Below are positions 18,049-64,000 of a DNA stretch of 64,000 bases, piece by piece. Location: the IMG/VR virus record IMGVR_UViG_3300008952_002488, positions 32,001 through 96,000 of that record; one strand, given 5' to 3'. The position numbers were made by a program, and so were the translations under genes. Source of the stretch: a virus. Under the pieces are notes generated by a model. The model saw nothing but the letters and a program-made list of their open reading frames with translations, had not been told where the DNA came from and did no database searches. How positions within the stretch are numbered: position 1 is the stretch's first letter; each line of letters begins with the position of its first letter.

Positions 18049-18747
18049 ATGAAAAAGATTTTGAGCGAATGGAAAAAGTTTTTAAATGAATCCGGGTTTA
18101 ACCGAATCAAGAATATCCTTCAGGGCAACGTAGCCTCTGTGGGTACAGTTGGTTTTATGACAGGTGAAAACCCTATGGCGCAAAAGATGTCATCCAAAGA
18201 AAACCGGATGCTCAACAAAGAGTTGATGGCTTGGATGCGTGAGCGTGGCTACGGACCCATTCGCATTAGAGGTCGCTTTGGAAACATGGAGAGATCTATG
18301 ATGATTCCCAACATCACCCGAGAAGATATGGTGGAGGCTGGCAAATACTTCAACCAAGAATCGGTTATTTGGGGAGAGAAGACCGACGAGAATGCATTTT
18401 TATTTGAGTACATCGAAGGCGATGTCACCGTCCAGCGCCGTGATGTTGTCTTGTTTGATGATGAAGTCCAGGCCCGTGAGGATTTTTATTCCCAAGAAAG
18501 ACAGTCAGCCGGACGCAAATTTTATATCCCCTTCTTTGACGATCAGTATGAGATGGAAGAAGGACATGAATATGATTACGACTTGCCAAGTCTAAGCGAA
18601 ACCCAACGAGAACAGAACAAAGAACTTATTAAAGAAATCAACGATAGGATTAGTTACACTTTGGACGCTAGTCGAGCCCCTAAATCTCGCTGGCATCATC
18701 GCCAAGTCCTTCGGCTTAAACTTCAGGAACTAAAAAATAAGTTATGA
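18049..18747 (+). CDS. Putative virion internal protein with leader MKKILSEWKKFLNE
   Basis: Shared leader; GFMTGENP and FNQESVIW core. Confidence 0.65.
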   Translation: MKKILSEWKKFLNESGFNRIKNILQGNVASVGTVGFMTGENPMAQKMSSKENRMLNKELMAWMRERGYGPIRIRGRFGNMERSMMIPNITREDMVEAGKYFNQESVIWGEKTDENAFLFEYIEGDVTVQRRDVVLFDDEVQAREDFYSQERQSAGRKFYIPFFDDQYEMEEGHEYDYDLPSLSETQREQNKELIKEINDRISYTLDASRAPKSRWHHRQVLRLKLQELKNKL

Positions 18748-19256
18748 AAAAGATAATGGAAAACTTTAAAAAGTTTCTCGCCGAAGCGCAAAAGGGTGAC
18801 TATGAGGTTGGTGGCGAGTTGGTGCTATTCCACTACGCCCCAGTAGATGCGGAAGCAATTCTTGTAGACCCTAAGTACTTTGCGGACAGAGCCAAGAGAA
18901 GTTCCTTCACTAGAAATGAGTACGAAACAAGCACGGTCCCCAGAACTTTTTGGTATGTGGACCCGCAACAAAGAGAAAGACAAGTGGCTTCAGGACGCCA
19001 CTTGTATCAAGCCACAATCCCAGCGGGAGAAATCTATGACTTCAGAAACGACCCCGAAGGATACAAGAAAAAACATAGTCATCCAATTTATAAATTAAGA
19101 AAAGGCGAAGAGTGGAATACGATGCTAGAGGATATACGAGACAGCTATGCTGGTGTATACTATTCCCTGAGAGCTTTTGATGTAGTGTCGCTATTCGTAC
19201 CCTACGAGGCGACCCGAGTCCCACCCGAAGAACAAGCCCGATTAGAGGGCGAATAA
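18744..19256 (+). CDS. Leader-bearing protein, possible ADP-ribosyltransferase-like fold
   Basis: Leader MKKIMENFKKFLAE; VLFHY, RTFWY and HLYQATI strands. Confidence 0.5.
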   Translation: MKKIMENFKKFLAEAQKGDYEVGGELVLFHYAPVDAEAILVDPKYFADRAKRSSFTRNEYETSTVPRTFWYVDPQQRERQVASGRHLYQATIPAGEIYDFRNDPEGYKKKHSHPIYKLRKGEEWNTMLEDIRDSYAGVYYSLRAFDVVSLFVPYEATRVPPEEQARLEGE

Positions 19257-32562: not shown

Positions 32563-32570
32563 CTATTTAT
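32563..32570 (+). promoter_or_regulatory. Candidate late promoter CTATTTAT
   Basis: Motif recurs in intergenic gaps before virion-like genes (35089, 49627, 59192, 63555). Confidence 0.55.
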
Positions 32571-32618: not shown

Positions 32619-33152
32619 ATGTCGAAGAAAAAGGCACTCATTAAAGAAACAGTAGTTCGTCGCTGGGGTAAGCTTGCTAACATCCATCCCTTGACTGAAA
32701 CTTTCCTTGAGGATACAGACCTGTATGAACAAGAAGAGGAAGGGGAGGAACTCGACGCTGAGGAAGCTGGTGCGGAAGACATGGAAGTACCCGTTGAAGA
32801 ACCCGGCGCTGAAGAAATGGACGCAGCGGCTCCGGCAGGAGAAGAGGAAGCTGTTGAGCGCATCGTCACTGCCGTTGTAGATGCCATCGCCGACGAAACA
32901 GGTGTTGACATTGAAGTCGAAGGTGAGGCTGGAGAAGCCGAAGGCGAAATGGAAATGGAAATGGGCGAAGAGCCACCTGAAGCGGTCGCTCTCGAAGAGC
33001 CTGCTGCCGAAGAGGAAGAGCCCGCTCCCGCTGGACGTGATATGGCTTACAACCGCAAGGATGAAGAACTCAACATCGATATGATTGACGATGAGGACCT
33101 TACCGAAGCAGTTCTCAAGCGAGTGGTTGAACGACTCCTTCGCCGCAAGTAA
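32619..33152 (+). CDS. Highly acidic protein, prohead core/scaffold-like
   Basis: LIKETVVRRWGKLA N-terminus, Glu-rich body, C-terminal EAVLKRVVERLL helix; SD AAGGAG. Confidence 0.55.
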   Translation: MSKKKALIKETVVRRWGKLANIHPLTETFLEDTDLYEQEEEGEELDAEEAGAEDMEVPVEEPGAEEMDAAAPAGEEEAVERIVTAVVDAIADETGVDIEVEGEAGEAEGEMEMEMGEEPPEAVALEEPAAEEEEPAPAGRDMAYNRKDEELNIDMIDDEDLTEAVLKRVVERLLRRK

Positions 33153-33168
33153 TCCTTCGGGAGAAAAC

Positions 33169-34113
33169 ATGAACCGTTTTCAAGCAAACGACCTCCGTAA
33201 TTTGATTACCGAGGTCGTTTCTGCTTATCAGGCAGAAAAAAGAAATAAATGGCTACTGGAAAGCCCCGAAGTAATTGAGGAAGGGGTCTTTGATCCCGGC
33301 ATCCTCAAAGCAATCTTCACGGCTGGCGGACCAGGCAGCGGAAAATCTTTTGTAGCAGACATGCTAATGGGAGCCCGATCTCTTGAGCCGCCTCACGCAA
33401 GATACTTTGAGGAAAACACTTCGTATCTTCCTAGCGGCATCAAGTATGTCAACTCTGACACGCTCTTCGAGAGAGGACTCATGAAGATGGGCATCAGCCC
33501 GAAAGACCTTGCGGATATCGAGGGACTGCCCAGCGACGAGTTGTGGGATATCATTCAGGGCGGCGACCCAGAATCTGTTCGCAATGTAGCCAAAGGACAG
33601 CTTAATGCCAAGCGTGCTTTTTTTGAGAGCGGACGCCTGGGTGTGCTGGTTGACGGAACCGGCCGCCAATACGACAAAATCCTGGGACAAAAAGAAAAAA
33701 TGGAGAAGCTAGGATACGACACCGCAATGGTGTTTGTGAACACTTCTCTTGATGTTGCCCAACAACGCAATGCAAACAGGTCACGCCAACTTCCCGAGGA
33801 AACAGTAGAAGACCTGTGGACTCAGGTACAGGAAAACCTGAAAGCCTACGCTCAACTTTTTGGAAACGACTTTACAATTATTATGAACGATGCCCCAGGG
33901 CCACCACCTGACTCAGCGGTCAAAGGACTGGACGACTTTGTGGATGCCCCGGTCAAAAACCCAGTCGGACAAGCGTGGATTGAGGGCGAACTTGAACGCC
34001 GTGGCGTCCAAACTCTTGAGCCCGGCGGAGCAGGCGGTTTCCGTGGAGACCGAGAATCTGCCGAGCGGATTGCTCGTATGAGACAAACAAGAGACGAACA
34101 GGGGGCAGAGTGA
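33169..34113 (+). CDS. P-loop kinase (zeta-toxin/AAA_33-like) with N-terminal leader
   Basis: KAIFTAGGPGSGKS, VNSD, LVDGTG, MVFVNT, RNANRSR. Confidence 0.75.
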   Translation: MNRFQANDLRNLITEVVSAYQAEKRNKWLLESPEVIEEGVFDPGILKAIFTAGGPGSGKSFVADMLMGARSLEPPHARYFEENTSYLPSGIKYVNSDTLFERGLMKMGISPKDLADIEGLPSDELWDIIQGGDPESVRNVAKGQLNAKRAFFESGRLGVLVDGTGRQYDKILGQKEKMEKLGYDTAMVFVNTSLDVAQQRNANRSRQLPEETVEDLWTQVQENLKAYAQLFGNDFTIIMNDAPGPPPDSAVKGLDDFVDAPVKNPVGQAWIEGELERRGVQTLEPGGAGGFRGDRESAERIARMRQTRDEQGAE

Positions 34114-35088: not shown

Positions 35089-35096
35089 CTATTTAT
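35089..35096 (+). promoter_or_regulatory. Candidate late promoter CTATTTAT
   Basis: Recurrent motif directly upstream of a leader-bearing gene. Confidence 0.55.
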
Positions 35097-35124: not shown

Positions 35125-35952
35125 ATGCAACATAGATTAATCATGGAGAATTGGCGCAATTTTCTGGAACAGCCGGGGGATCCATTCCTTATTTACGAAA
35201 GAAAAGGTAAAATAGAGCAGGTAAATTTTCAGCACCTGCTAAAGGAAGTTGACCGAGGTAAAGTATCACACAAGCAAGCGTACCTAATTTTTGAAAGAGC
35301 GTTTGATTATGGGGAAAGACAGCTTCTAGAAGAAGGACTTTGGGATCTTATTGTTCAAGGATACGACAAAGCCGGTGAAATTGTTAGCAATGTCGCCGCC
35401 GACGTCAAGGCAGCGTGGGAAAAAGTAAGCGATTTTTATTTGAATATGATGATCAAGGCGATGGGACTGGCCAGCCGTGGCATTCAGTTCTTTTCCAAGT
35501 ATGCCAGAAAAGTGTTAGATGCGATTGATAAGTTTCAGGAGAAGCATCCTATACTTTATAAAATTATTGTTGCTGTTATAATCATTCTGATTATTTACGC
35601 TTTGTTTGGGTCGTCTAACGCTCAAGCAGCAGTTCGGGTTGGCGACAAAACTATGACCGACACAGAGTACAAGGCTGTCCAAGGGGTGCTAGAGACGGCA
35701 TCAAGAGATGCTTCAATTGCCGACGTAGGATTCAGAACCGCTGTTGGCGAGGCGCAAGTAGCCCTCCAGCAAGCCCACCAAACCGGCGAATCAATTAATA
35801 TAAATGATCTAGCGCCTACTGTGCAGGAGGCTTGGAGTATCGTGGACACCACTTTAAACACAGCAGCCCAAGGCGATAAGGCCGCTGGTCAGGTGTTTAA
35901 TCTATGGTACAAGCTTGGCGACGCTCTTAGAATCACAAGCATAGGAATGTAA
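35125..35952 (+). CDS. Leader-bearing membrane protein
   Basis: MQHRLIMENWRNFLE leader; TM helix IIVAVIIILIIYALF. Confidence 0.65.
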   Translation: MQHRLIMENWRNFLEQPGDPFLIYERKGKIEQVNFQHLLKEVDRGKVSHKQAYLIFERAFDYGERQLLEEGLWDLIVQGYDKAGEIVSNVAADVKAAWEKVSDFYLNMMIKAMGLASRGIQFFSKYARKVLDAIDKFQEKHPILYKIIVAVIIILIIYALFGSSNAQAAVRVGDKTMTDTEYKAVQGVLETASRDASIADVGFRTAVGEAQVALQQAHQTGESININDLAPTVQEAWSIVDTTLNTAAQGDKAAGQVFNLWYKLGDALRITSIGM

Positions 35953-35962
35953 GGAGAAAATA

Positions 35963-36418
35963 ATGTCCCAATATAAAATCACTAAAAAACGGTTAGCGCA
36001 AATCATAAAAGAAGAATACCAAAACCTTCAAGAACTTGAGGACCCTCGCAGCCCAAGCCCAATGTCGTGGGAACACGAGGGTGCGGCTGACGACTTCAGA
36101 AATCAGATTATGAATTTGGTCTTCAAATTAGCGCCCCTCACTCTTGATCCCAAGACTGCCAACGCCGTCGAAATTGAAATTCGAGATGTACTTAACACTC
36201 TCAACATTGGCACAAACCCAAGAGACCAGTACCGCCAAGAAGAATCCAAGAAAGCCAAGAAAGATTTTGATGGTGATGGTGAGGTAGAGTCCGCAGAAGC
36301 GGAGTGGAAGGGTTCTCGGGACAAAGCAATTGATAAAGAAAAGGAAGACGAGAAAGTTAGCAAGGAATCGCTGGACTCTATTCGTGACCTGATCATGCAA
36401 GAACTAAAGAACCTCTAA
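35963..36418 (+). CDS. Leader-bearing acidic virion-like protein
   Basis: YKITKKRLAQIIKEE leader; DFDGDGEVES EF-hand-like loop. Confidence 0.6.
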   Translation: MSQYKITKKRLAQIIKEEYQNLQELEDPRSPSPMSWEHEGAADDFRNQIMNLVFKLAPLTLDPKTANAVEIEIRDVLNTLNIGTNPRDQYRQEESKKAKKDFDGDGEVESAEAEWKGSRDKAIDKEKEDEKVSKESLDSIRDLIMQELKNL

Positions 36419-39843: not shown

Positions 39844-41430
39844 ATGAATGATGACCACATCTTGTTTGGTGATGAAATTAGACAGAAGCTTCTTTCTGGT
39901 GCTAATAAATTGACTGATGCGGTGGCTTCGACTCTTGGACCTCGTGGGCAAAATGTAATTCTCTATAGACGTGGTGCTGACCCTGTTATCACAAAGGATG
40001 GCGTAAGCGTTGCCCGTGTTGTAGAACTTGACGACGATTACGAGCAAGCAGCAGTGGAGGTGCTTCGCCAAGCAGCCCTCCAAACAGAAAAGACGAGTGG
40101 CGATGGCACAACGACCAGTACTGTTTTGGCTCGTGCCATACTGCTAGCAGCCAACAAGCACATTGCTGCCGGTGCCTCATCTACTGATATCAAGAGAGGG
40201 ATTGATGCAGCAGTTGAGGCAATATGTGACAGGATTACAGAACTCGCACAGCCAGTTTCCAGCGAGGAAGAGATCCGACATGTTGCAACAGTTTCTGCCA
40301 ACGGCGATGAGGCTATAGGGGCATTGATTGCCGAGGCAGTGGCTGCCGCAGGAAAAGACGGGTCTATCACCATTGAGGAAAGCCGTTCCCTGAAAACTAT
40401 TCTGGATGTTGTTGAGGGCTTCCGCTTCGATGGCGGCTTTGTCTCTCCACAGTTTGTAACAGACCAGAGGCGTGCAGTTATAGAATATAGAGATGCCCTC
40501 GTGTTTGTGACCGACGAGACTTTAGACAATGTTGAGGAGATGCTGTCAATTTTAGAGGTGGTGGCTCGTGATGGTCGCCCCTTTGTTATTGTGGCGGAAG
40601 AGATTGAGGGTCAACTTCTTGCGGCATTGATTATGAATCGTATGCGAAATGACATGAAGATTGCCGCAGTCAAGGCACCCAAGTACGGCGAAGAGCGACG
40701 CAGCCTTCTGGAGGATATTGCGCTGGTTACGGGAGCCACCTTCGTCAGCAAAGATAGTGGTATCAGACTCAGGGATGTCAAGCTGGAGCACCTGGGGTCT
40801 GTGAAAAGAATAGAGATCAGCAAGAGACGGACTATCTTATCTGACAGCGACGTTGACTATGGGGAATTAGAAAAAAGAGTAGAGTCCCTCACCGCTCTTA
40901 TGGAAGACACAGAAGACCTCAAGGAAGCCGAAGCAATCCAAGAGAGAATAACAAGACTTCAGTCTGCCGTCGCCGTCGTTCGCATCGGAGGAGCAACAGA
41001 AATCGAAGTCACAGAAAAGAAACACAGAGTTGAGGACGCCTTAGAGGCAGTCAGGTCAGCACAAGAGGAGGGGATTGTTCCTGGCGGCGGCACAGCTTTG
41101 ATAAAAGCTGCTCATGCGGTAAGGGTTGAGCTAGCCAACGAGGACGAACTTCGGGGCGCTCAAGCTCTAGCAGAAGCGTGTACGGCTCCAATGAAACAGA
41201 TACTCAAGAATGCAGACGTGTCCTCGGACCTAGTGATAAATACCCTTCCTCATGATGAAGAGAGTCTTAATGTTGGCTTTAATGCTAGGACTGAAAACTT
41301 TGAAGATTTAATCGAGTCGGGCGTCATCGACCCAGCAAAAACTGTGAAGTGTGCGTTACAAAACGCCGCTAGCGCAGCGGGAACGCTGCTCACAACTAAT
41401 TGTGCTGTTTTAAAGAAAGGTGGTGAATAA
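39844..41430 (+). CDS. groEL: Chaperonin GroEL
   Basis: TLGPRG, ITKDGVSVA, GDGTTT, KAPKYG, GIVPGGG, GVIDP. Confidence 0.97.
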   Translation: MNDDHILFGDEIRQKLLSGANKLTDAVASTLGPRGQNVILYRRGADPVITKDGVSVARVVELDDDYEQAAVEVLRQAALQTEKTSGDGTTTSTVLARAILLAANKHIAAGASSTDIKRGIDAAVEAICDRITELAQPVSSEEEIRHVATVSANGDEAIGALIAEAVAAAGKDGSITIEESRSLKTILDVVEGFRFDGGFVSPQFVTDQRRAVIEYRDALVFVTDETLDNVEEMLSILEVVARDGRPFVIVAEEIEGQLLAALIMNRMRNDMKIAAVKAPKYGEERRSLLEDIALVTGATFVSKDSGIRLRDVKLEHLGSVKRIEISKRRTILSDSDVDYGELEKRVESLTALMEDTEDLKEAEAIQERITRLQSAVAVVRIGGATEIEVTEKKHRVEDALEAVRSAQEEGIVPGGGTALIKAAHAVRVELANEDELRGAQALAEACTAPMKQILKNADVSSDLVINTLPHDEESLNVGFNARTENFEDLIESGVIDPAKTVKCALQNAASAAGTLLTTNCAVLKKGGE

Positions 41431-58443: not shown

Positions 58444-58790
58444 TGTTATATAAGTCATTGATTTTACTAGTATTTGCAAATATGTTTAATCAAGCCTATA
58501 AAGTTGAGCAAATCCAATGCCCTAAATGGGTGCCTGGAACAAATCAAGTTCTACCTCAAGGCGTAAGTCTATCACCTGAATTGGAATTAAAAAATCGAGT
58601 GCGATGCTATTGTGAGGTTGTGAAGGCAAAGGAGGCGCAGTGTCTCGCTCGCCATGTGCCGGCAACCATCTGTAAAGCCCGCACCGCTCGGTGGGTTGAG
58701 GACAACTTAAAACTCAAGGAAAGCTTCCAACTCGTTAATGGAGTATCTTCTCCGCCTAGACGAGACAGGATGATGAATGTCGAGCCGTAG
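58443..58790 (+). CDS. Cys-containing exported-like protein
   Basis: Hydrophobic N-terminus MLYKSLILLVFA; five Cys. Confidence 0.55.
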   Translation: MLYKSLILLVFANMFNQAYKVEQIQCPKWVPGTNQVLPQGVSLSPELELKNRVRCYCEVVKAKEAQCLARHVPATICKARTARWVEDNLKLKESFQLVNGVSSPPRRDRMMNVEP

Positions 58791-59181
58791 AGGCGTTACT
58801 CTTATTATAGTTCTTGTTATGTCTGTGTTCATTGGTATGAGTGCAATGTTATTATTTTCTACCGTCAATATGGAAATGATGATTGCCGGCAATACACGGC
58901 GTATCAACCAAGCAAAAATTTCGGCGGCGAGCGGGCTCGCTCACTTCACTGCCCTCAACCTTACTTACGACACACTTAGAGACCGAGCTTCTGGTCTGCA
59001 AACTTTGCAGATCTTGCCCGACACCCAACTATCGACTAGGACACATTACGAGGTAAAGGTTCATTTTTATCCCCGCCTAAGTGAGCGGCAATATGTGGTC
59101 GAAAGCATCGGCTATTATACCAAGGGCAACAAGGTTCTTGCCTTGCATCCAATAAAAGCTCTCTTTGATGGCGGTCAATAA
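58777..59181 (+). CDS. PilX-like minor type IV pilin
   Basis: RRG-VTLIIVLVM prepilin-type N-terminus without Glu5; EMMIAGN.R...QA...A.SGL; YVVESIG. Confidence 0.8.
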   Translation: MSSRRGVTLIIVLVMSVFIGMSAMLLFSTVNMEMMIAGNTRRINQAKISAASGLAHFTALNLTYDTLRDRASGLQTLQILPDTQLSTRTHYEVKVHFYPRLSERQYVVESIGYYTKGNKVLALHPIKALFDGGQ

Positions 59182-59191
59182 AAAAACAAAA

Positions 59192-59199
59192 CTATTTAT
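59192..59199 (+). promoter_or_regulatory. Candidate late promoter CTATTTAT
   Basis: Heads the 59.2-63.5 kb leader-bearing gene cluster. Confidence 0.55.
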
Positions 59200-59221
59200 C
59201 TATACCTACGGAGGTTTTAAA

Positions 59222-59353
59222 ATGATTACTAAAACTAAGCTCTGGAAGACAATAAGAGATGCATTGCGAGAAAATGCACGTTCTCAATCAATAACCGAAA
59301 AGGTTATGCAAAAGATTAAAGAGCAGGAAAAAGAAGAAAGTGAATCTAAGTGA
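59222..59353 (+). CDS. 43 aa leader-like peptide
   Basis: MITKTKLWKTIRDALRE; SD GGAGG. Confidence 0.55.
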   Translation: MITKTKLWKTIRDALRENARSQSITEKVMQKIKEQEKEESESK

Positions 59354-59534
59354 GCTTAGAGACTTCATCAAGGAAGTTATAAAAGAAGCAGCCGAAGAAG
59401 GTAAGATGCAAAAAATTTATCGTCGTTCTTTTAAGGACATGATAAAGAAAACAAAATCTGGTAAAAATCCAAACACTGCCCCATTTACCGAAGAAGCTTC
59501 CGATGGCGGTGAATCAGGTCCGCCAAAACAATGA
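59340..59534 (+). CDS. Small leader-bearing protein
   Basis: LRDFIKEVIKE. Confidence 0.55.
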   Translation: MNLSELRDFIKEVIKEAAEEGKMQKIYRRSFKDMIKKTKSGKNPNTAPFTEEASDGGESGPPKQ

Positions 59535-60361
59535 AAAAACTAATGGACCGATGGCGAGTGTTCATCAATGAAGAAGTACTTAAAAAGATTTATGTTCACG
59601 GATATGTGAAGCCGGAAAAGGCTTTCCGTACACTTGTCGAGTGGGAAGCCTTTGTTAATACAATCCTAAAGTTCCAAAAAGACGGTCATTATATTAGCCA
59701 TAGTCATGGAGAGCTTGTGGGACCCGAAGAGTTAGTATCTCTTATAAAAGATTTTTATGGTTTCCAATTAAATGTTGATGTAGAGAGGTACGAACTCTTA
59801 ACAAGTAAAAATGTCCTTGATCATATTGAGGATTTTGTTAACCATAGGTTCTGGGGTTTAGAACAAGAGTTTAAAATATATTTTGATGACATCAGCGAAC
59901 TTCGATTTGCCTACTTTTATTCTCGTGGAGATCTCGAACCATACGTCTTGGTAGATGATGCTTTCACTGAGCAAGTATATGGATCAACCAACAATCCAAA
60001 AATATTATATCATTACACACACGAGGAAGGGGTCGAAAGAATCCAGAGAGCAATTGATGGCGGTGACCCTTTCGACATTTCTGCCTATACAGTAGCGCAG
60101 CGTGATTTCTTTCGCAAAAAATCAAATAAGATAATGAAGTTCGAAGGAAACGTTCGTGCCGGTTTTCGCAGTGATGTAAAATCTTATTCTGTTAGTAGTG
60201 GAAGAAAGTGCGTCAATCTTCATCGCATGGGATACCCAGGAAAAGATAAAAATAATCTCTGCACCAATCTGGAAGACGATTGCAATGGTGAACTGAGAAC
60301 ATCTTTGTGGAACGAGTTCATAGCCACACCAGTCAAAATCTTAAAGGTCTTCGATAAATGA
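59531..60361 (+). CDS. Leader-bearing protein with ART-like C-terminal domain
   Basis: MKKLMDRWRVFINEE; LYHYT, ISAYT, WNEFI. Confidence 0.5.
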   Translation: MKKLMDRWRVFINEEVLKKIYVHGYVKPEKAFRTLVEWEAFVNTILKFQKDGHYISHSHGELVGPEELVSLIKDFYGFQLNVDVERYELLTSKNVLDHIEDFVNHRFWGLEQEFKIYFDDISELRFAYFYSRGDLEPYVLVDDAFTEQVYGSTNNPKILYHYTHEEGVERIQRAIDGGDPFDISAYTVAQRDFFRKKSNKIMKFEGNVRAGFRSDVKSYSVSSGRKCVNLHRMGYPGKDKNNLCTNLEDDCNGELRTSLWNEFIATPVKILKVFDK

Positions 60362-60807
60362 AACATCTAATGAGGGAGTGGAGAAAATTCCTCTCGGAGG
60401 GAGAAGTAAAGTACAGAGGCATTCTGATGATTAAACCAGACCCTGCAATAATTGCACAAGTGCAAGAGATGCAAGACACACTCCCAGAATATGGGGTCCC
60501 CTTAGAAGAAAAAGATCTCCATGTTACCTTGATTCATCAAAGTATCTTAAAGCCGTTTAAGAAGCAACTAAAAGAAATAGACTTCCCGCCCCCGCCTTCT
60601 ATAGAGATAGAACCCAGAGTTTTCCAGAGAAAATCTCCCGGCAAAGAATCATGGGCTACTAGGCTTTTAAATCAGGACGAGATGAGAGATTATGTAAGGC
60701 AGGTCATGGAGCTTCTCGGCAGCCAGAATACAGACCCAGAACCCGAACGAGTCTTTCACATAACGATTGGAAATCTCACAGGCAATCCGCACGACTCCGT
60801 AAGATGA
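60358..60807 (+). CDS. 2H phosphoesterase with leader
   Basis: MKHLMREWRKFLSE; two HxT motifs, LHVTL and FHITI. Confidence 0.75.
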   Translation: MKHLMREWRKFLSEGEVKYRGILMIKPDPAIIAQVQEMQDTLPEYGVPLEEKDLHVTLIHQSILKPFKKQLKEIDFPPPPSIEIEPRVFQRKSPGKESWATRLLNQDEMRDYVRQVMELLGSQNTDPEPERVFHITIGNLTGNPHDSVR

Positions 60808-61517
60808 TAGAAATCCTCAGAGAATTAATAATGGAAGAGATCGTCAGAGGCAGAGCCCTTGATCGCTATGCTACCATGGCTAGCAGGGAAACCATAAACG
60901 CCATCAAAGACGAATCGGTCAGAGAAGCTTTTAACACTAACGGCAGAGTTGACTTCGCACTGGACGTTCCCGAGATTACAGATGACATAGACTACTTGAG
61001 AACGATTATCATTAAGATGAGAGAAGGTGAATATGTTTCTAGTGATGGCTCTTATGAGTTTGATTTAGATGCTGATGATGAGCAGCGTAAGACTTCCGAC
61101 ATTTATGTAAACATTACTTTACCTCCTCGGTATGATGAAGATTATTCTTTTATGTCCCGCTTGGTTGCGGAGTTAAAGGAGACCTTCCGCCACGAGTTGG
61201 AGCACAGTTCCCAGAGCACCGAAGAGTTGATGGCTGTACAGCGAGCAGTACCCGACCGAGAGGTGTGGAAAGACTTGGAGACAGCGGAGGAATATTACCT
61301 TTCGGATGCTGAGGTGAAGGCTCATGTGGCTGGCATCTATAAAAAGGCAAAGAGTTTCCGAAAGCCCGCTACAAATGTGTTGGAGCGAGTTCTCAATATT
61401 ATCTACAATACAGGATTGTACTACGAGCACGACCCTGCAAAACTTGCAGAGTTGATGGAGAAGGTGCAAACACGCTGGGCGAACTATTTATTTGATAGAT
61501 ACCCGAGGGCTCAATAA
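60804..61517 (+). CDS. Zincin metalloprotease-like protein with leader
   Basis: ILRELIMEE; RHELEH..Q; YY...EVKAH. Confidence 0.7.
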   Translation: MIEILRELIMEEIVRGRALDRYATMASRETINAIKDESVREAFNTNGRVDFALDVPEITDDIDYLRTIIIKMREGEYVSSDGSYEFDLDADDEQRKTSDIYVNITLPPRYDEDYSFMSRLVAELKETFRHELEHSSQSTEELMAVQRAVPDREVWKDLETAEEYYLSDAEVKAHVAGIYKKAKSFRKPATNVLERVLNIIYNTGLYYEHDPAKLAELMEKVQTRWANYLFDRYPRAQ

Positions 61518-62113
61518 TGAAACACAAACTTATAATGGAAAACTGGCGACTCTATGAGCAGCGGCTTTTATGGGAACAGGAGTTTGATGAATTTTTTAAT
61601 AAACACTTTGTTGTTCTTGAGGAAGGGTTTATAGATTGGGCCGTCTCTAAAGGTAGAGATGCCAAACAGGCAGTCATGGGCGTTATTAACGACATGAAAG
61701 ATTGGACGGCGGAAAAAATTAAAGAATTTGTTCAGTTTATGGGCAAGAAAATGCAAGCCTTCCTTCAAGGTCTGAGAGATAAAGGACTCCTTGGAAAATG
61801 GCAATCTAGGAAAGAACAAAGCGCACTGAGATTGCTGATGACAAACAAACACTTCGATCTCGCAGTCATGATTTTTACCACAATTGCAAAAATGACAGGG
61901 GGTTTTATTGTTGACAAAGTAGCAAAAATGCCAGAGTTAATACAGAGTGTTCTTAAATTGCTGGATAACCCAGTGGTTGCGTTGAAAGAGTTGTTCGGCG
62001 ATATTTCAGATATTAAGACATTGATTCAGAAATTTATGGCATATAGAGAAGATAGGAAAACTTTAAATGTAGCACAAATGGGAGACTGGTCAGATTTTGG
62101 AGGTCTTGTATAA
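61517..62113 (+). CDS. Leader-bearing amphipathic/membrane protein
   Basis: MKHKLIMENWRLYE; LEEG..DW segment similar to the 35125 protein. Confidence 0.6.
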   Translation: MKHKLIMENWRLYEQRLLWEQEFDEFFNKHFVVLEEGFIDWAVSKGRDAKQAVMGVINDMKDWTAEKIKEFVQFMGKKMQAFLQGLRDKGLLGKWQSRKEQSALRLLMTNKHFDLAVMIFTTIAKMTGGFIVDKVAKMPELIQSVLKLLDNPVVALKELFGDISDIKTLIQKFMAYREDRKTLNVAQMGDWSDFGGLV

Positions 62114-62116
62114 ACC

Positions 62117-63247
62117 ATGAAACTCCTGATGGAAAACTGGCGCAAGTTCCTGAAGGAAGGCATCACCGATGTTGTCTATCATTATACTGCCGGTGTTGAA
62201 AAAGCAGCCAAGATACTTGAAGAGAATAGGTTCATGGCGTCAGGTGGATTTACCAAAGAGGTGGAGGCTGAGTTAGGTAAGGGTAAGCTTTATTATTTTT
62301 CCACCGCAAGAACACCAGCAAATGCTTACACCGGCAACTATCCACAAGGGGCTATTTTCAAATTGGATGGCCGGGCTTTGTCCCAAAAATATAAAGGAGT
62401 CCCTGTTGATTATTGGGCTGATCCAAAACGGGGCAGGTCATCTAAGAAAGCAGCCAATGTTGATGAGCCGGGGTCTATAGAAGGTTTTGAGGCAGAAGAT
62501 AGAATCCTTCTAGACGAACCCTATATTGATGATGCCGACACCTACATTGATGAGATACATTTTGCTATTCCGATTTATAAAAAGGAAAAGGATATGTTCT
62601 CAGGTAAAATAGAACGACGGGCCCGAAGTAGTATTGCCTGGTGGCAATTGGACGGATTACAACGAGGCGTGGCTGTGGCGGAACAAAGAAATATTCCTTA
62701 TTATATTCACATAGACCAAAGCACATATCCGCACGTTGAAGTTGGAAAGCGAAAAGCCATCACCAGTTTGTCTGACTTTTTGGTAGAACTAGAGAAGTCT
62801 GGTGTAAAAGTTGGTGAGCCGCCAGAGCCACTCGGTGCCGATTCTATGGCCGCTCGGAAAAAGAGGGGAGAAAGAAAAGAGTTCGGCGAAGATGAAATCT
62901 TTTTGTTTGTCCAAGCAGCCCAAGACATTCTTGCTGGGAAAGAGCAGTTTGAAGGAGCCAGCGTACAAGGTAAAGTTGGCTATAGAGAAGAAAGCGACCG
63001 CAAGGATTTAGGTAAGGTAATGTTCCGAAATCTTGCTGGTCAGCCAGATGGAGCGGGTCGTTTTTATAGGGATATTGATAACTCCCTTCATAACGCCGGC
63101 AAAAACCCCGAAGCCCGAAAAACTGTTGAGATGCTCGCCTCACTTATGCGGAGCACAAGGAAAACGACGATAAAAGATTTTGAAACCTATATAAATCAGG
63201 TCTATAAGCAGAACCATCCAGACGGAGACCCAACCGGGTATAGATAA
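62117..63247 (+). CDS. Leader-bearing ADP-ribosyltransferase-like protein
   Basis: MKLLMENWRKFLKE-G; VYHYT, YFSTAR, IFKLDG, EAEDRI (ExE). Confidence 0.55.
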   Translation: MKLLMENWRKFLKEGITDVVYHYTAGVEKAAKILEENRFMASGGFTKEVEAELGKGKLYYFSTARTPANAYTGNYPQGAIFKLDGRALSQKYKGVPVDYWADPKRGRSSKKAANVDEPGSIEGFEAEDRILLDEPYIDDADTYIDEIHFAIPIYKKEKDMFSGKIERRARSSIAWWQLDGLQRGVAVAEQRNIPYYIHIDQSTYPHVEVGKRKAITSLSDFLVELEKSGVKVGEPPEPLGADSMAARKKRGERKEFGEDEIFLFVQAAQDILAGKEQFEGASVQGKVGYREESDRKDLGKVMFRNLAGQPDGAGRFYRDIDNSLHNAGKNPEARKTVEMLASLMRSTRKTTIKDFETYINQVYKQNHPDGDPTGYR

Positions 63248-63249
63248 CA

Positions 63250-63540
63250 ATGAAAATTACAAAAGCCTTATTGAGAACGATTATCAAAGAAGAACTCCAA
63301 GAAGCCTTCGGGCTAGAGAAGGATTTTCAGCCTGGTGCTTCTGTACACTGGAATGTGTTAGCAAAAGTGATTAAGACCACAGCAAGCGGTCGAGAGAAAG
63401 TTGATTACGAAAGAATGATGATGACTGGAGAAGTTGTTGAGCTTATTACAAGCCCTGGTGCAGCATTGGGCGTTGCTATTGTTCGAGATCCCGACGGCAA
63501 CACACACGAGATAGAACTTTCAGAACTCACATTAGCCTAA
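63250..63540 (+). CDS. Leader-bearing SH3-like protein
   Basis: MKITKALLRTIIKEELQE; FQPGASV..GEVV..LTL. Confidence 0.6.
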   Translation: MKITKALLRTIIKEELQEAFGLEKDFQPGASVHWNVLAKVIKTTASGREKVDYERMMMTGEVVELITSPGAALGVAIVRDPDGNTHEIELSELTLA

Positions 63541-63568
63541 CTTTTTAGTAGAAACTACTTATATTAAG

Positions 63569-64000
63569 ATGAGTATTTTCCGAGAACACAAAACAATTGC
63601 GGACAGAGCATCGGCTGATAGATCACGGCATCGTAAAAAAATTGAAAAAGCGATTAAAGACAGTGTTAAAGATGTTGTAGCCGAAGAAAGCATCATCGGG
63701 CAAAGCGGAAAAAAGAAAATAAGGATCCCAGTAAAAGGGATCAAAGAGCACAGATTTGTTTTCGGAGCCAATGAAAAAAATAAACGAGTTGGATCTGCCC
63801 AAGGTAAAAACATAAATAAAGGACAGAGGATCGGAAAGAAACAAGCTCCCACACAAAGTCAAGGAAACAAGCCCGGCAAAGAAGCCGGCGAGGAAATGTA
63901 TGAAATAGAAATGAGCCTAGAAGAGCTAGCGGAATATCTATTCAACGATCTAAACCTCCCTGAGTTGGAGAAAAAGAAATTTAAATTTATCACCGAAGAG
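63569..64000 (+). CDS. YhbH/YeaH (DUF444, UPF0229) family protein, 3' truncated; not in ORF track
   Basis: Hand translation MSIFREHKTIADRASADRSRHRKKIEKAIKD..EESII..IPVKGIKEHRFVFG..G.EAGEEMYEIEMSLEELAEYLFNDLNLPELEKK. Confidence 0.88.
   Translation, partial: MSIFREHKTIADRASADRSRHRKKIEKAIKDSVKDVVAEESIIGQSGKKKIRIPVKGIKEHRFVFGANEKNKRVGSAQGKNINKGQRIGKKQAPTQSQGNKPGKEAGEEMYEIEMSLEELAEYLFNDLNLPELEKKKFKFITEE

Follow-up and report, generated by a model that had tools for sequence, protein, structure and literature searches.

Candidate capsid-targeting leaders shared by unrelated, variable cargo proteins of an uncultured T4-type phage

Introduction

Why should proteins as different as a predicted phosphoesterase, a putative ADP-ribosyltransferase (ART) and several small acidic polypeptides begin with the same short peptide? 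The question is raised by a run of genes at positions 59192-63540 of a 64,000-nt stretch of viral DNA, hereafter called the window, which corresponds to bases 32001-96000 of one 171,926-bp virus contig. A preliminary description of this stretch had proposed that two kinds of N-terminal leader, A and B, are portable tags that load a changing set of enzymes into the phage head. A precedent is found in phage T4, where the capsid-targeting sequence (CTS) of the internal proteins IPI, IPII and IPIII is removed by the prohead protease gp21 (Mullaney and Black 1996, reviewed in PMC9026906 and PMC3012670) and where a variable set of internal proteins behind this peptide is established (PMC3012670, PMC9026906). 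Within the CTS, residues 4 and 7 matter in targeting, and residues 8 and 10 in processing (PMC9026906). We report here a computational analysis of the two leaders and propose, from their sequences and genomic setting, that they are probably a variant of the T4 CTS system that carries enzymes as cargo and whose gene sets differ among relatives. Window coordinates refer to the 64,000-nt stretch and genome coordinates (L001) to the whole 171,926-bp contig.

Results

Two leaders on otherwise unrelated proteins

Leader A, with the consensus MKxLMENWRKFLxE, stands at the N-terminus of eight proteins of the contig. The seven type-A N-termini announced in the preliminary description (18049, 18744, 35125, 59531, 60358, 61517 and 62117) are present as written, as are the two clear type-B ones (35963 and 63250). 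A hidden Markov model (HMM) built from the seven A leaders and run on the six-frame translation of the 171,926-bp contig scored its seeds at 22-25 bits and disclosed one extra copy outside the window (genome 7907, 16.8 bits), the next-best match after these eight copies reaching only 6 bits; all eight are N-terminal and lie on the + strand. Leader B, with the consensus MKITKxQLRKIIKEEL, is found by its own HMM in ten strong copies on the contig, eight of them N-terminal and two internal. An all-against-all comparison of 12-mers gave 28 pairs scoring at least 30 among N-termini against one pair among internal segments, and the N-terminal clusters contain the eight A proteins and six B proteins, with no others. 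The claim that the domains following leader A are unrelated was borne out as well, since the leader-stripped A proteins gave a best BLASTP E of 0.36 among themselves. The looser B versions that had also been listed proved weaker: 59222 is marginal with 8.4 bits, 60804 and 33169 have no HMM match, and the N-terminus of 59340 resembles instead that of a conserved head-module protein (E 6e-5).

Three long IMG/VR contigs (G002, G003 and G005) are syntenic relatives of the contig. The tagged genes of the window and the features that accompany them are the following open reading frames (ORFs) and motifs.

18049-18747, + strand: leader A followed by a DUF3293 domain (A HMM 22.1 bits; Pfam PF11697, E 2.9e-9)
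18744-19256, + strand: leader A, with F in place of W, on a 170-aa cargo (A HMM 24.5 bits)
33085-34113, + strand: P-loop kinase of the zeta-toxin/AAA_33 type (Pfam PF06414, E 1.1e-8)
35089-35096, + strand: promoter-like motif CTATTTAT, 28 nt before 35125
35125-35952, + strand: leader A (MQHRLIMENWRNFLEQ) on a 275-aa cargo (A HMM 25.1 bits)
35963-36418, + strand: leader B, placed after MSQY, on a 151-aa acidic protein (B HMM 28.9 bits)
59192-59199, + strand: promoter-like motif CTATTTAT, ahead of the gene run 59222-63540
59222-59353, + strand: small ORF with a loose B-like leader, MITKTKLWKTIRDAL (B HMM 8.4 bits), and an orthologue in G003
59340-59534, + strand: 64-aa ORF with an N-terminus like that of the protein of genome 19475-19861 (BLASTP 46% identity over 28 aa, E 6e-5)
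59531-60361, + strand: leader A on a 276-aa cargo (A HMM 24.0 bits; no Pfam family)
60358-60807, + strand: leader A on a predicted 2H phosphoesterase domain (two H-x-T motifs; AlphaFold2 model and Foldseek)
60804-61517, + strand: 237-aa protein with an HExxH motif (HELEH, read from the sequence) and a loose amphipathic N-terminus
61484-61491, + strand: promoter-like motif CTATTTAT, 25 nt before 61517
61517-62113, + strand: leader A variant MKHKLIMENWR on a 198-aa cargo (A HMM 24.4 bits)
62117-63247, + strand: leader A, predicted ART-fold domain (residues ~17-216) and helical C-terminal domain (AlphaFold2 predicted local distance difference test, pLDDT, 82.6)
63250-63540, + strand: leader B on a small acidic protein of 96 aa (B HMM 31.1 bits), with orthologues in G002 and G003

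In the relatives the locus 59192-63540 is bordered by conserved flanks, namely a pilin-like gene and a DUF444 gene, and it is the content between them that changes. This genome (G000) has there the A-tagged 276-aa protein, the A-tagged 2H protein, the HExxH protein, the A-tagged 198-aa protein, the A-tagged ART-fold protein and the B-tagged 96-aa protein. In G003 the A-tagged 2H and 198-aa proteins are missing and two other A-tagged genes are found instead, the place of 61517 being taken by other leader-A genes, while G002 keeps only the A-tagged ART-fold and the B genes. The product of 60804, which has neither a Pfam family nor a leader-HMM match, is 90% conserved in G003, and in the G003 orthologue of 59531 the core W-x-x-F-I-N-E is all that remains of the leader. 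The kinase of 33085 has only a loose leader-like N-terminus (at 33169), and its homologues on L007 and L015 have a clean leader A. Elsewhere in G003 (120600-122400, loci L028-L029), a homologue of the first ORF of the contig is preceded by four leader-A genes in a row; since this stretch has no counterpart on the contig, the phage of the window may carry more than eight A-tagged genes.

Conservation of the leaders and their separation from the cargo

A back-translated MENWRKFL pattern was matched exactly at 15 places in IMG/VR, spread over 14 contigs. Each match is N-terminal, with M-K-(L/Q)-(L/I)-type residues before and x-E after the pattern, and the sequences downstream differ and include P-loop kinases. 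Over 611 kb of the lineage, leader A was counted 48 times, always at an N-terminus, and leader B 32 times, with 28 copies N-terminal and four internal. The expectation that the leaders occur at N-termini only is thus valid for A (48/48) and fails for B (4/32 internal). Among 46 unique A leaders, W8 is kept in 44/46, F/Y11 in 45/46, L/V/I12 in 41/46 and E14 in 38/46, the best-kept positions being W8, R/K9, F/Y11, L12 and E14; among 30 unique B leaders, both E14 and I/V12 are kept in 30/30. In A as in B, the end of the leader fits the protease consensus (L/I)-x-Glu, as a match of sequence only.

The cargo of 62117 offers the clearest view of how leader and cargo combine. Its homologues begin with leader A, either directly or with a linker of 20-30 residues behind it, with a short B-like leader or with a T4-like one, and although these leaders differ, E14 is invariant in the 33 aligned homologues. 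The T4-like leader, MKKFNEFANELAE, belongs to a homologue from Vibrio phage K566, whose record also lists genes for endonuclease VII and rIIA. In Microcystis phage Mel-JY01 (L018, record 60276-62718), a phage on which our literature searches found no paper, three paralogues with this ART-fold cargo all begin with MIKLKSLLQEIISD, one of them being truncated to 60 aa. Since several leaders are found on one cargo and many cargoes behind one leader, tag and cargo are separable. The AlphaFold models of 62117 and 60358 agree with a detached peptide: leader residues 2-11 form a low-confidence helix, and a disordered segment joins it to a globular domain that is modelled with confidence.

Both internal B copies of the contig sit in a single ORF of 395 aa (genome 1723-2910), at residues ~166 and ~257, in addition to a loose copy at its N-terminus, and the orthologues in G003 and G005 likewise have internal B copies. 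This protein looks like several tagged modules in one chain, possibly separated by the head protease. It is followed by a tandem run of small B genes (genome 2907-4300). A gene for a Peptidase_M50 protein (site-2 protease family, E 3e-57; L001:308-1111), 87% conserved in G003, lies directly before CTATTTAT and the tandem B array. Two paralogues (L001:1195-1710 and L001:8644-9096), each behind CTATTTAT, have a loose B-like N-terminus and then a glycine-rich FGGG stretch.

A T4-type head in the same genome

Nearly all genes of the contig are carried by the + strand. The contig is incomplete, its last ORF running off the end and CheckV estimating its completeness at 60%. According to Pfam it encodes, just upstream of the window, a T4-type large terminase, a portal protein (Portal_T4 PF07230, 3e-80), a Gp23-type major capsid protein (PF07068, 3e-73) and an S77, that is gp21-type, prohead protease (genome 17706-18299; Peptidase_S77 PF03420, 5e-28). 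The last is 32% identical to T4 gp21 (E 2e-22) and retains the GEL(D/N)HP and SSRG motifs. Among phages in culture, the nearest capsid proteins belong to Microcystis phage Mel-JY01, Flavobacterium phage immuto and Rhodothermus phage RM378, and by these sequence affinities the phage is assigned to the "Far-T4" neighbourhood. Homologues of the proteins of the contig are numerous in marine metagenomes, Tara included, and IMG/VR holds more than 400 relatives of its protease; megablast of window positions 59000-64000 against cultured phages gave no match. Searches of five leader-bearing IMG/VR contigs with PF03420 and with the protease of the contig gave no match either, which for G002, G003 and G005 is not evidence of absence because these fragments end short of the protease gene.

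The resemblance between leader A and the T4 peptide is one of spacing. In the T4 record, IPII and IPIII begin with MKTYQEFIAE, and the maturation site of gp23 is F-L-T-E/A (the slash marks the cut). The core W-x-x-F-L-x-E of leader A is spaced like Y4, F7, I8 and E10 of the CTS. Where the capsid protein of the contig corresponds to the end of the T4 propeptide, a single sequence of this kind occurs, L-L-K-E/Q.

A genomic link between leaders and head genes was found in relatives. In three fragments retrieved by the leader pattern, A and B genes directly adjoin the protease gene. We then considered 79 loci for which homology to the protease on one of these fragments was the sole criterion of choice, which removes the bias of selection by leader. 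In this sister sublineage, 32 of the 79 protease loci carry A or B genes, 39 genes in total, and 34 of these 39 sit between the portal gene and a conserved gene just past the protease; all are co-oriented. In the T4 record, the core proteins gp67 and gp68 are encoded in the equivalent interval, from the portal to the protease gene. In the phage of the window, tagged genes are clustered upstream of the terminase gene, at distances of 4-16 kb, and others lie elsewhere in the genome. A conserved protein of its head module (genome 19475-19861) has a B-like N-terminus, which is the one matched by the ORF at 59340.

Predicted folds of the cargo

Two cargoes could be assigned a fold from their models. 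For 62117, the best match in a wide VIA-align search was Tpt1 (Z 9.3, root-mean-square deviation 2.7 over 112 aligned residues), followed by four DarT entries (Z 7.0-8.1, the upper three at 8.1, 7.5 and 7.4) and then by many ART toxins, the top rows being nearly all ART enzymes. Foldseek on the same model gave nothing significant, so that the ART fold is visible only by the wide VIA-align search. On this structural ground we assign the cargo of 62117 to the ADP-ribosyltransferase superfamily fold. Seven positions are invariant in its 33 homologues, namely E14, H22, Y59, S62, R65, E125 and E127, the last two forming an E-x-E motif. ART-like domains had also been announced behind other leaders, and for these the assignment found no support: with 59531 and 18744, the hhalign match to the ART alignment covers the leader and first strand alone, and we do not count either as ART-like.

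The model of 60358 (AlphaFold2, pLDDT 88.5) is predicted to be a 2H phosphoesterase. All its top Foldseek matches are 2H proteins, with a probability of ~1, among them the phosphodiesterase of phage BCSR5, LigT and the anti-CBASS (cyclic oligonucleotide-based antiphage signalling system) protein Acb1, including that of phage FBB1. Both H-x-T motifs are present, as H55-V-T57 and H134-I-T136, and the invariant positions are W8, F11, E14, H55, T57 and H134. Its score against Pfam LigT_PEase is 21 bits, slightly below the cut-off. The likeness to Acb1 does not extend to the sequence profile, since the hhalign probability with the product of T4 gene 57B, which we take to be Acb1, is 0.4%. No match to PDB sequences was obtained by phmmer for 60358, 62117 or 18049. 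Judged from the folds, the cargo could have a role against host defence.

A promoter-like motif ahead of tagged and structural genes

Over the genome, 2.7 copies of the motif CTATTTAT would be expected. The + strand has 12, of which 9 lie 22-88 nt ahead of an ORF start (P 8e-9), and the - strand has one. In the window taken alone its frequency is not above chance (4 seen, 1.9 expected). It precedes six units that begin with leader genes (genome 1195, 7907 and 8644; window 35125, 59222 and 61517), and also the tail sheath gene and other structural-looking genes, with copies ahead of the genome ORFs 23629, 108629 and 148009; forms with one mismatch are found ahead of the scaffold-like gene (genome 20691-21695) and the tail-tube gene. 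From its positions, the motif is a plausible late promoter element. The statement that most leader genes sit behind it needs to be narrowed: in the window it is correct for 35125, 61517 and the 59222 operon only, and incorrect for 18049 and 18744. For one copy, at window 32563-32570, no ORF start is called in the next 300 nt, and a small unannotated gene or RNA may follow it.

Neighbouring genes

The upstream border of the tagged locus is formed by a 134-aa ORF (window 58777-59181) with a hydrophobic N-terminus like that of type IV pilins or pseudopilins, which is kept in G002 and G003. The stretch directly after the tagged cluster, at window 63569-64000 and onward (genome 95569-100015), opens with a DUF444 (YeaH-like) gene. 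Next come an ORF of 438 aa and one of 647 aa, which may resemble SpoVR and PrkA, and all three are conserved in G002 and G003. Further upstream, a TubZ-like tubulin (PF00091 and PF22453) is encoded at L001:9974-11110, just upstream of the window, the terminase gene and the head module, and at L001:4332-7484 a single ORF of 1050 aa fuses an Mre11-like metallophosphatase to an SbcC/SMC-like ATPase.

Discussion

We favour the reading of leaders A and B as tags of the CTS kind. According to it, the tagged proteins would be made late, together with the head proteins, and would dock by their short amphipathic N-terminal helix to the scaffolding core while the prohead assembles. The gp21-type serine protease would cut past the conserved Glu (F-L-x-E in A, I-I-K-E in B), and the mature cargo would stay in the capsid and exit with the DNA at the next infection, where its enzymes could act in the host. 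Because the tag is separable from its cargo, genes for new cargo could be gained or lost behind it. The proposal that portable, CTS-like tags stand on variable cargo draws support from the S77 protease and the T4-type head, the CTS format, the terminal Glu, the detached helix, the variation of cargo among relatives, the tagged neighbours of the protease gene in the sister sublineage and the promoter-like motif held in common with structural genes. A more specific version, in which two or three interchangeable tags load dozens of enzyme families (ART-fold proteins, 2H proteins, zeta-type kinases and HExxH proteins) into the head, seems to us to have slightly less than an even chance. Different tags may specify different amounts or positions in the head.

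Several observations weigh against such tags. The A and B HMMs gave less than 3 bits with T4 IPI, IPII, IPIII, Alt, gp67 and gp68 and less than 1 bit with the T4 CTS itself; the likeness is therefore one of format and not of detectable homology, and a hydrophobic residue two places before a Glu is common in any protein. Among 80 protease loci of the own sublineage of the phage, no leader A and two leader B genes were found within 6 kb, and the linkage to the head module is therefore limited to the sister sublineage. The genes 18049 and 18744 belong to an operon of replication and nucleotide metabolism without CTATTTAT. The product of 61517 and a few relatives lack the terminal F-L-x-E, and leader B is internal in four proteins. 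Finally, the cargo is acidic (pI 4.5-6.4), whereas the internal proteins of T4 are small and basic. The internal B copies, the operon of 18049 and 18744 and the acidic cargo also temper the preliminary proposal.

The same facts can be read in other ways. The leaders might indeed dock to the prohead core while the proteins behind them are assembly or core components, or while the leader stays uncut, so that no enzyme payload would be injected. The tagged genes of the sister sublineage occupy the position of T4 gp67 and gp68, the conserved head-module protein of genome 19475 has a B-like N-terminus, many B proteins are small, acidic and without recognisable fold, and giant phages do not always retain propeptide processing (PMC5694885). 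On the other hand, at least two cargoes are predicted enzymes with catalytic-type residues intact (the ART fold and the 2H phosphoesterase), and cargo that varies among close relatives would be unusual for assembly factors. This explanation is plausible for the small B proteins and less so for the enzymes, and for the leaders as a whole we hold it to be quite unlikely. We give a little more room, while still judging it unlikely, to a leader unrelated to the capsid that would serve as an intracellular address or handle, such as a helix for localisation to membrane or nucleoid, a degron, or a peptide recognised by a machine that the phage encodes, for instance GroEL, MoxR or the DUF444/SpoVR/PrkA triad beside the cluster. 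The amphipathic character of the helix would suit such a role, a GroEL (judged by its N-terminal sequence) is encoded at window 39844-41430, the DUF444 gene directly follows the cluster, and 18049 and 18744 sit in a non-structural operon. Such an address does not account for the constancy of the final Glu, for the agreement with the CTS at positions of mapped function, for tagged genes that adjoin the prohead protease gene, or for a promoter-like motif in common with structural genes.

One could also wonder whether the peptide matters at all. If conservation acted on DNA or RNA, through a translation-initiation region or a recombination joint for the exchange of cassettes, the peptide would be functionless; the swapping of cargo genes between relatives would be consistent with this, and three tandem B genes (genome 2907-3789) are alike in DNA too. 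Across the A leaders, however, the residues E, N, R, K, F and L are conserved although different codons encode them, from which it follows that selection acts on the peptide, and the conservation of leader residues persists over a divergence of the protease gene down to 53% identity. We therefore find a DNA- or RNA-level origin very improbable. Least credible of all is a leader recognised by a modifying enzyme, as in ribosomally synthesised and post-translationally modified peptides: the 172-kb contig yielded no Radical_SAM domain, whereas the same search matched 14/14 control genomes, and no other enzyme gene was noticed beside the tags in G000, G002, G003, G005 and the mapped fragments, where no systematic search was made.

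Set beside T4, the candidate tag system resembles its model in several respects. In both cases a short N-terminal peptide that starts with M-K and is spaced as aromatic-x-x-F-(I/L)-x-E is common to otherwise unrelated proteins. Both phages possess an S77 protease of the gp21 type, a portal of the gp20 type and a capsid protein of the gp23 type, and in both the cargo set varies among related phages. What is new with respect to T4 is the sequence and length of the leader (14-16 aa here against 10 in T4, without detectable sequence homology), the coexistence of at least two leader types, an acidic cargo that contains enzymes and comprises many more families, the tagged genes inside the head module of the sister sublineage, and the occurrence in an abundant uncultured marine lineage. 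Our literature searches found no paper linking the CTS to Far-T4 or marine T4-like phages.

A parallel can be drawn with the ART Alt, which T4 packages and which gp21 trims at ITE-6 and LTE-619 (PMC5694885). Like Alt, the predicted ART-fold protein of 62117 begins with a propeptide-like segment whose end reads hydrophobic-x-Glu, and its phage encodes a protease of the gp21 type. Its structural neighbours in the VIA-align search were Tpt1 and DarT (Z 7-9), enzymes that act on nucleic acids. The giant phages phiKZ, 201phi2-1 and SPN3US also hold many head-internal proteins that are cut after Glu by a gp21-related protease (PMC5694885, PMC10052503). Short identical N-termini are known there too, on diverged paralogues (PMC5694885, PMC10052503), whereas their propeptides are mostly longer than 100 residues, have the cleavage motif (S/A/G)-x-E and do not share N-termini across unrelated folds.

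Should the tags function as their T4 counterpart does, the proteins that an abundant group of ocean phages delivers before any gene expression would be recognisable by a simple label in their sequence. Such a label could be searched for in viromes and would yield candidate first-strike enzymes for host take-over and counter-defence, and the portable tag could serve to load foreign proteins into the capsids of non-model phages. To our knowledge, hardly anything has been learned of the repertoire of injected proteins beyond T4, P1 and a few giant phages, and the tag would, if our reading is true, make a large and unexplored body of phage-injected proteins recognisable by computation.

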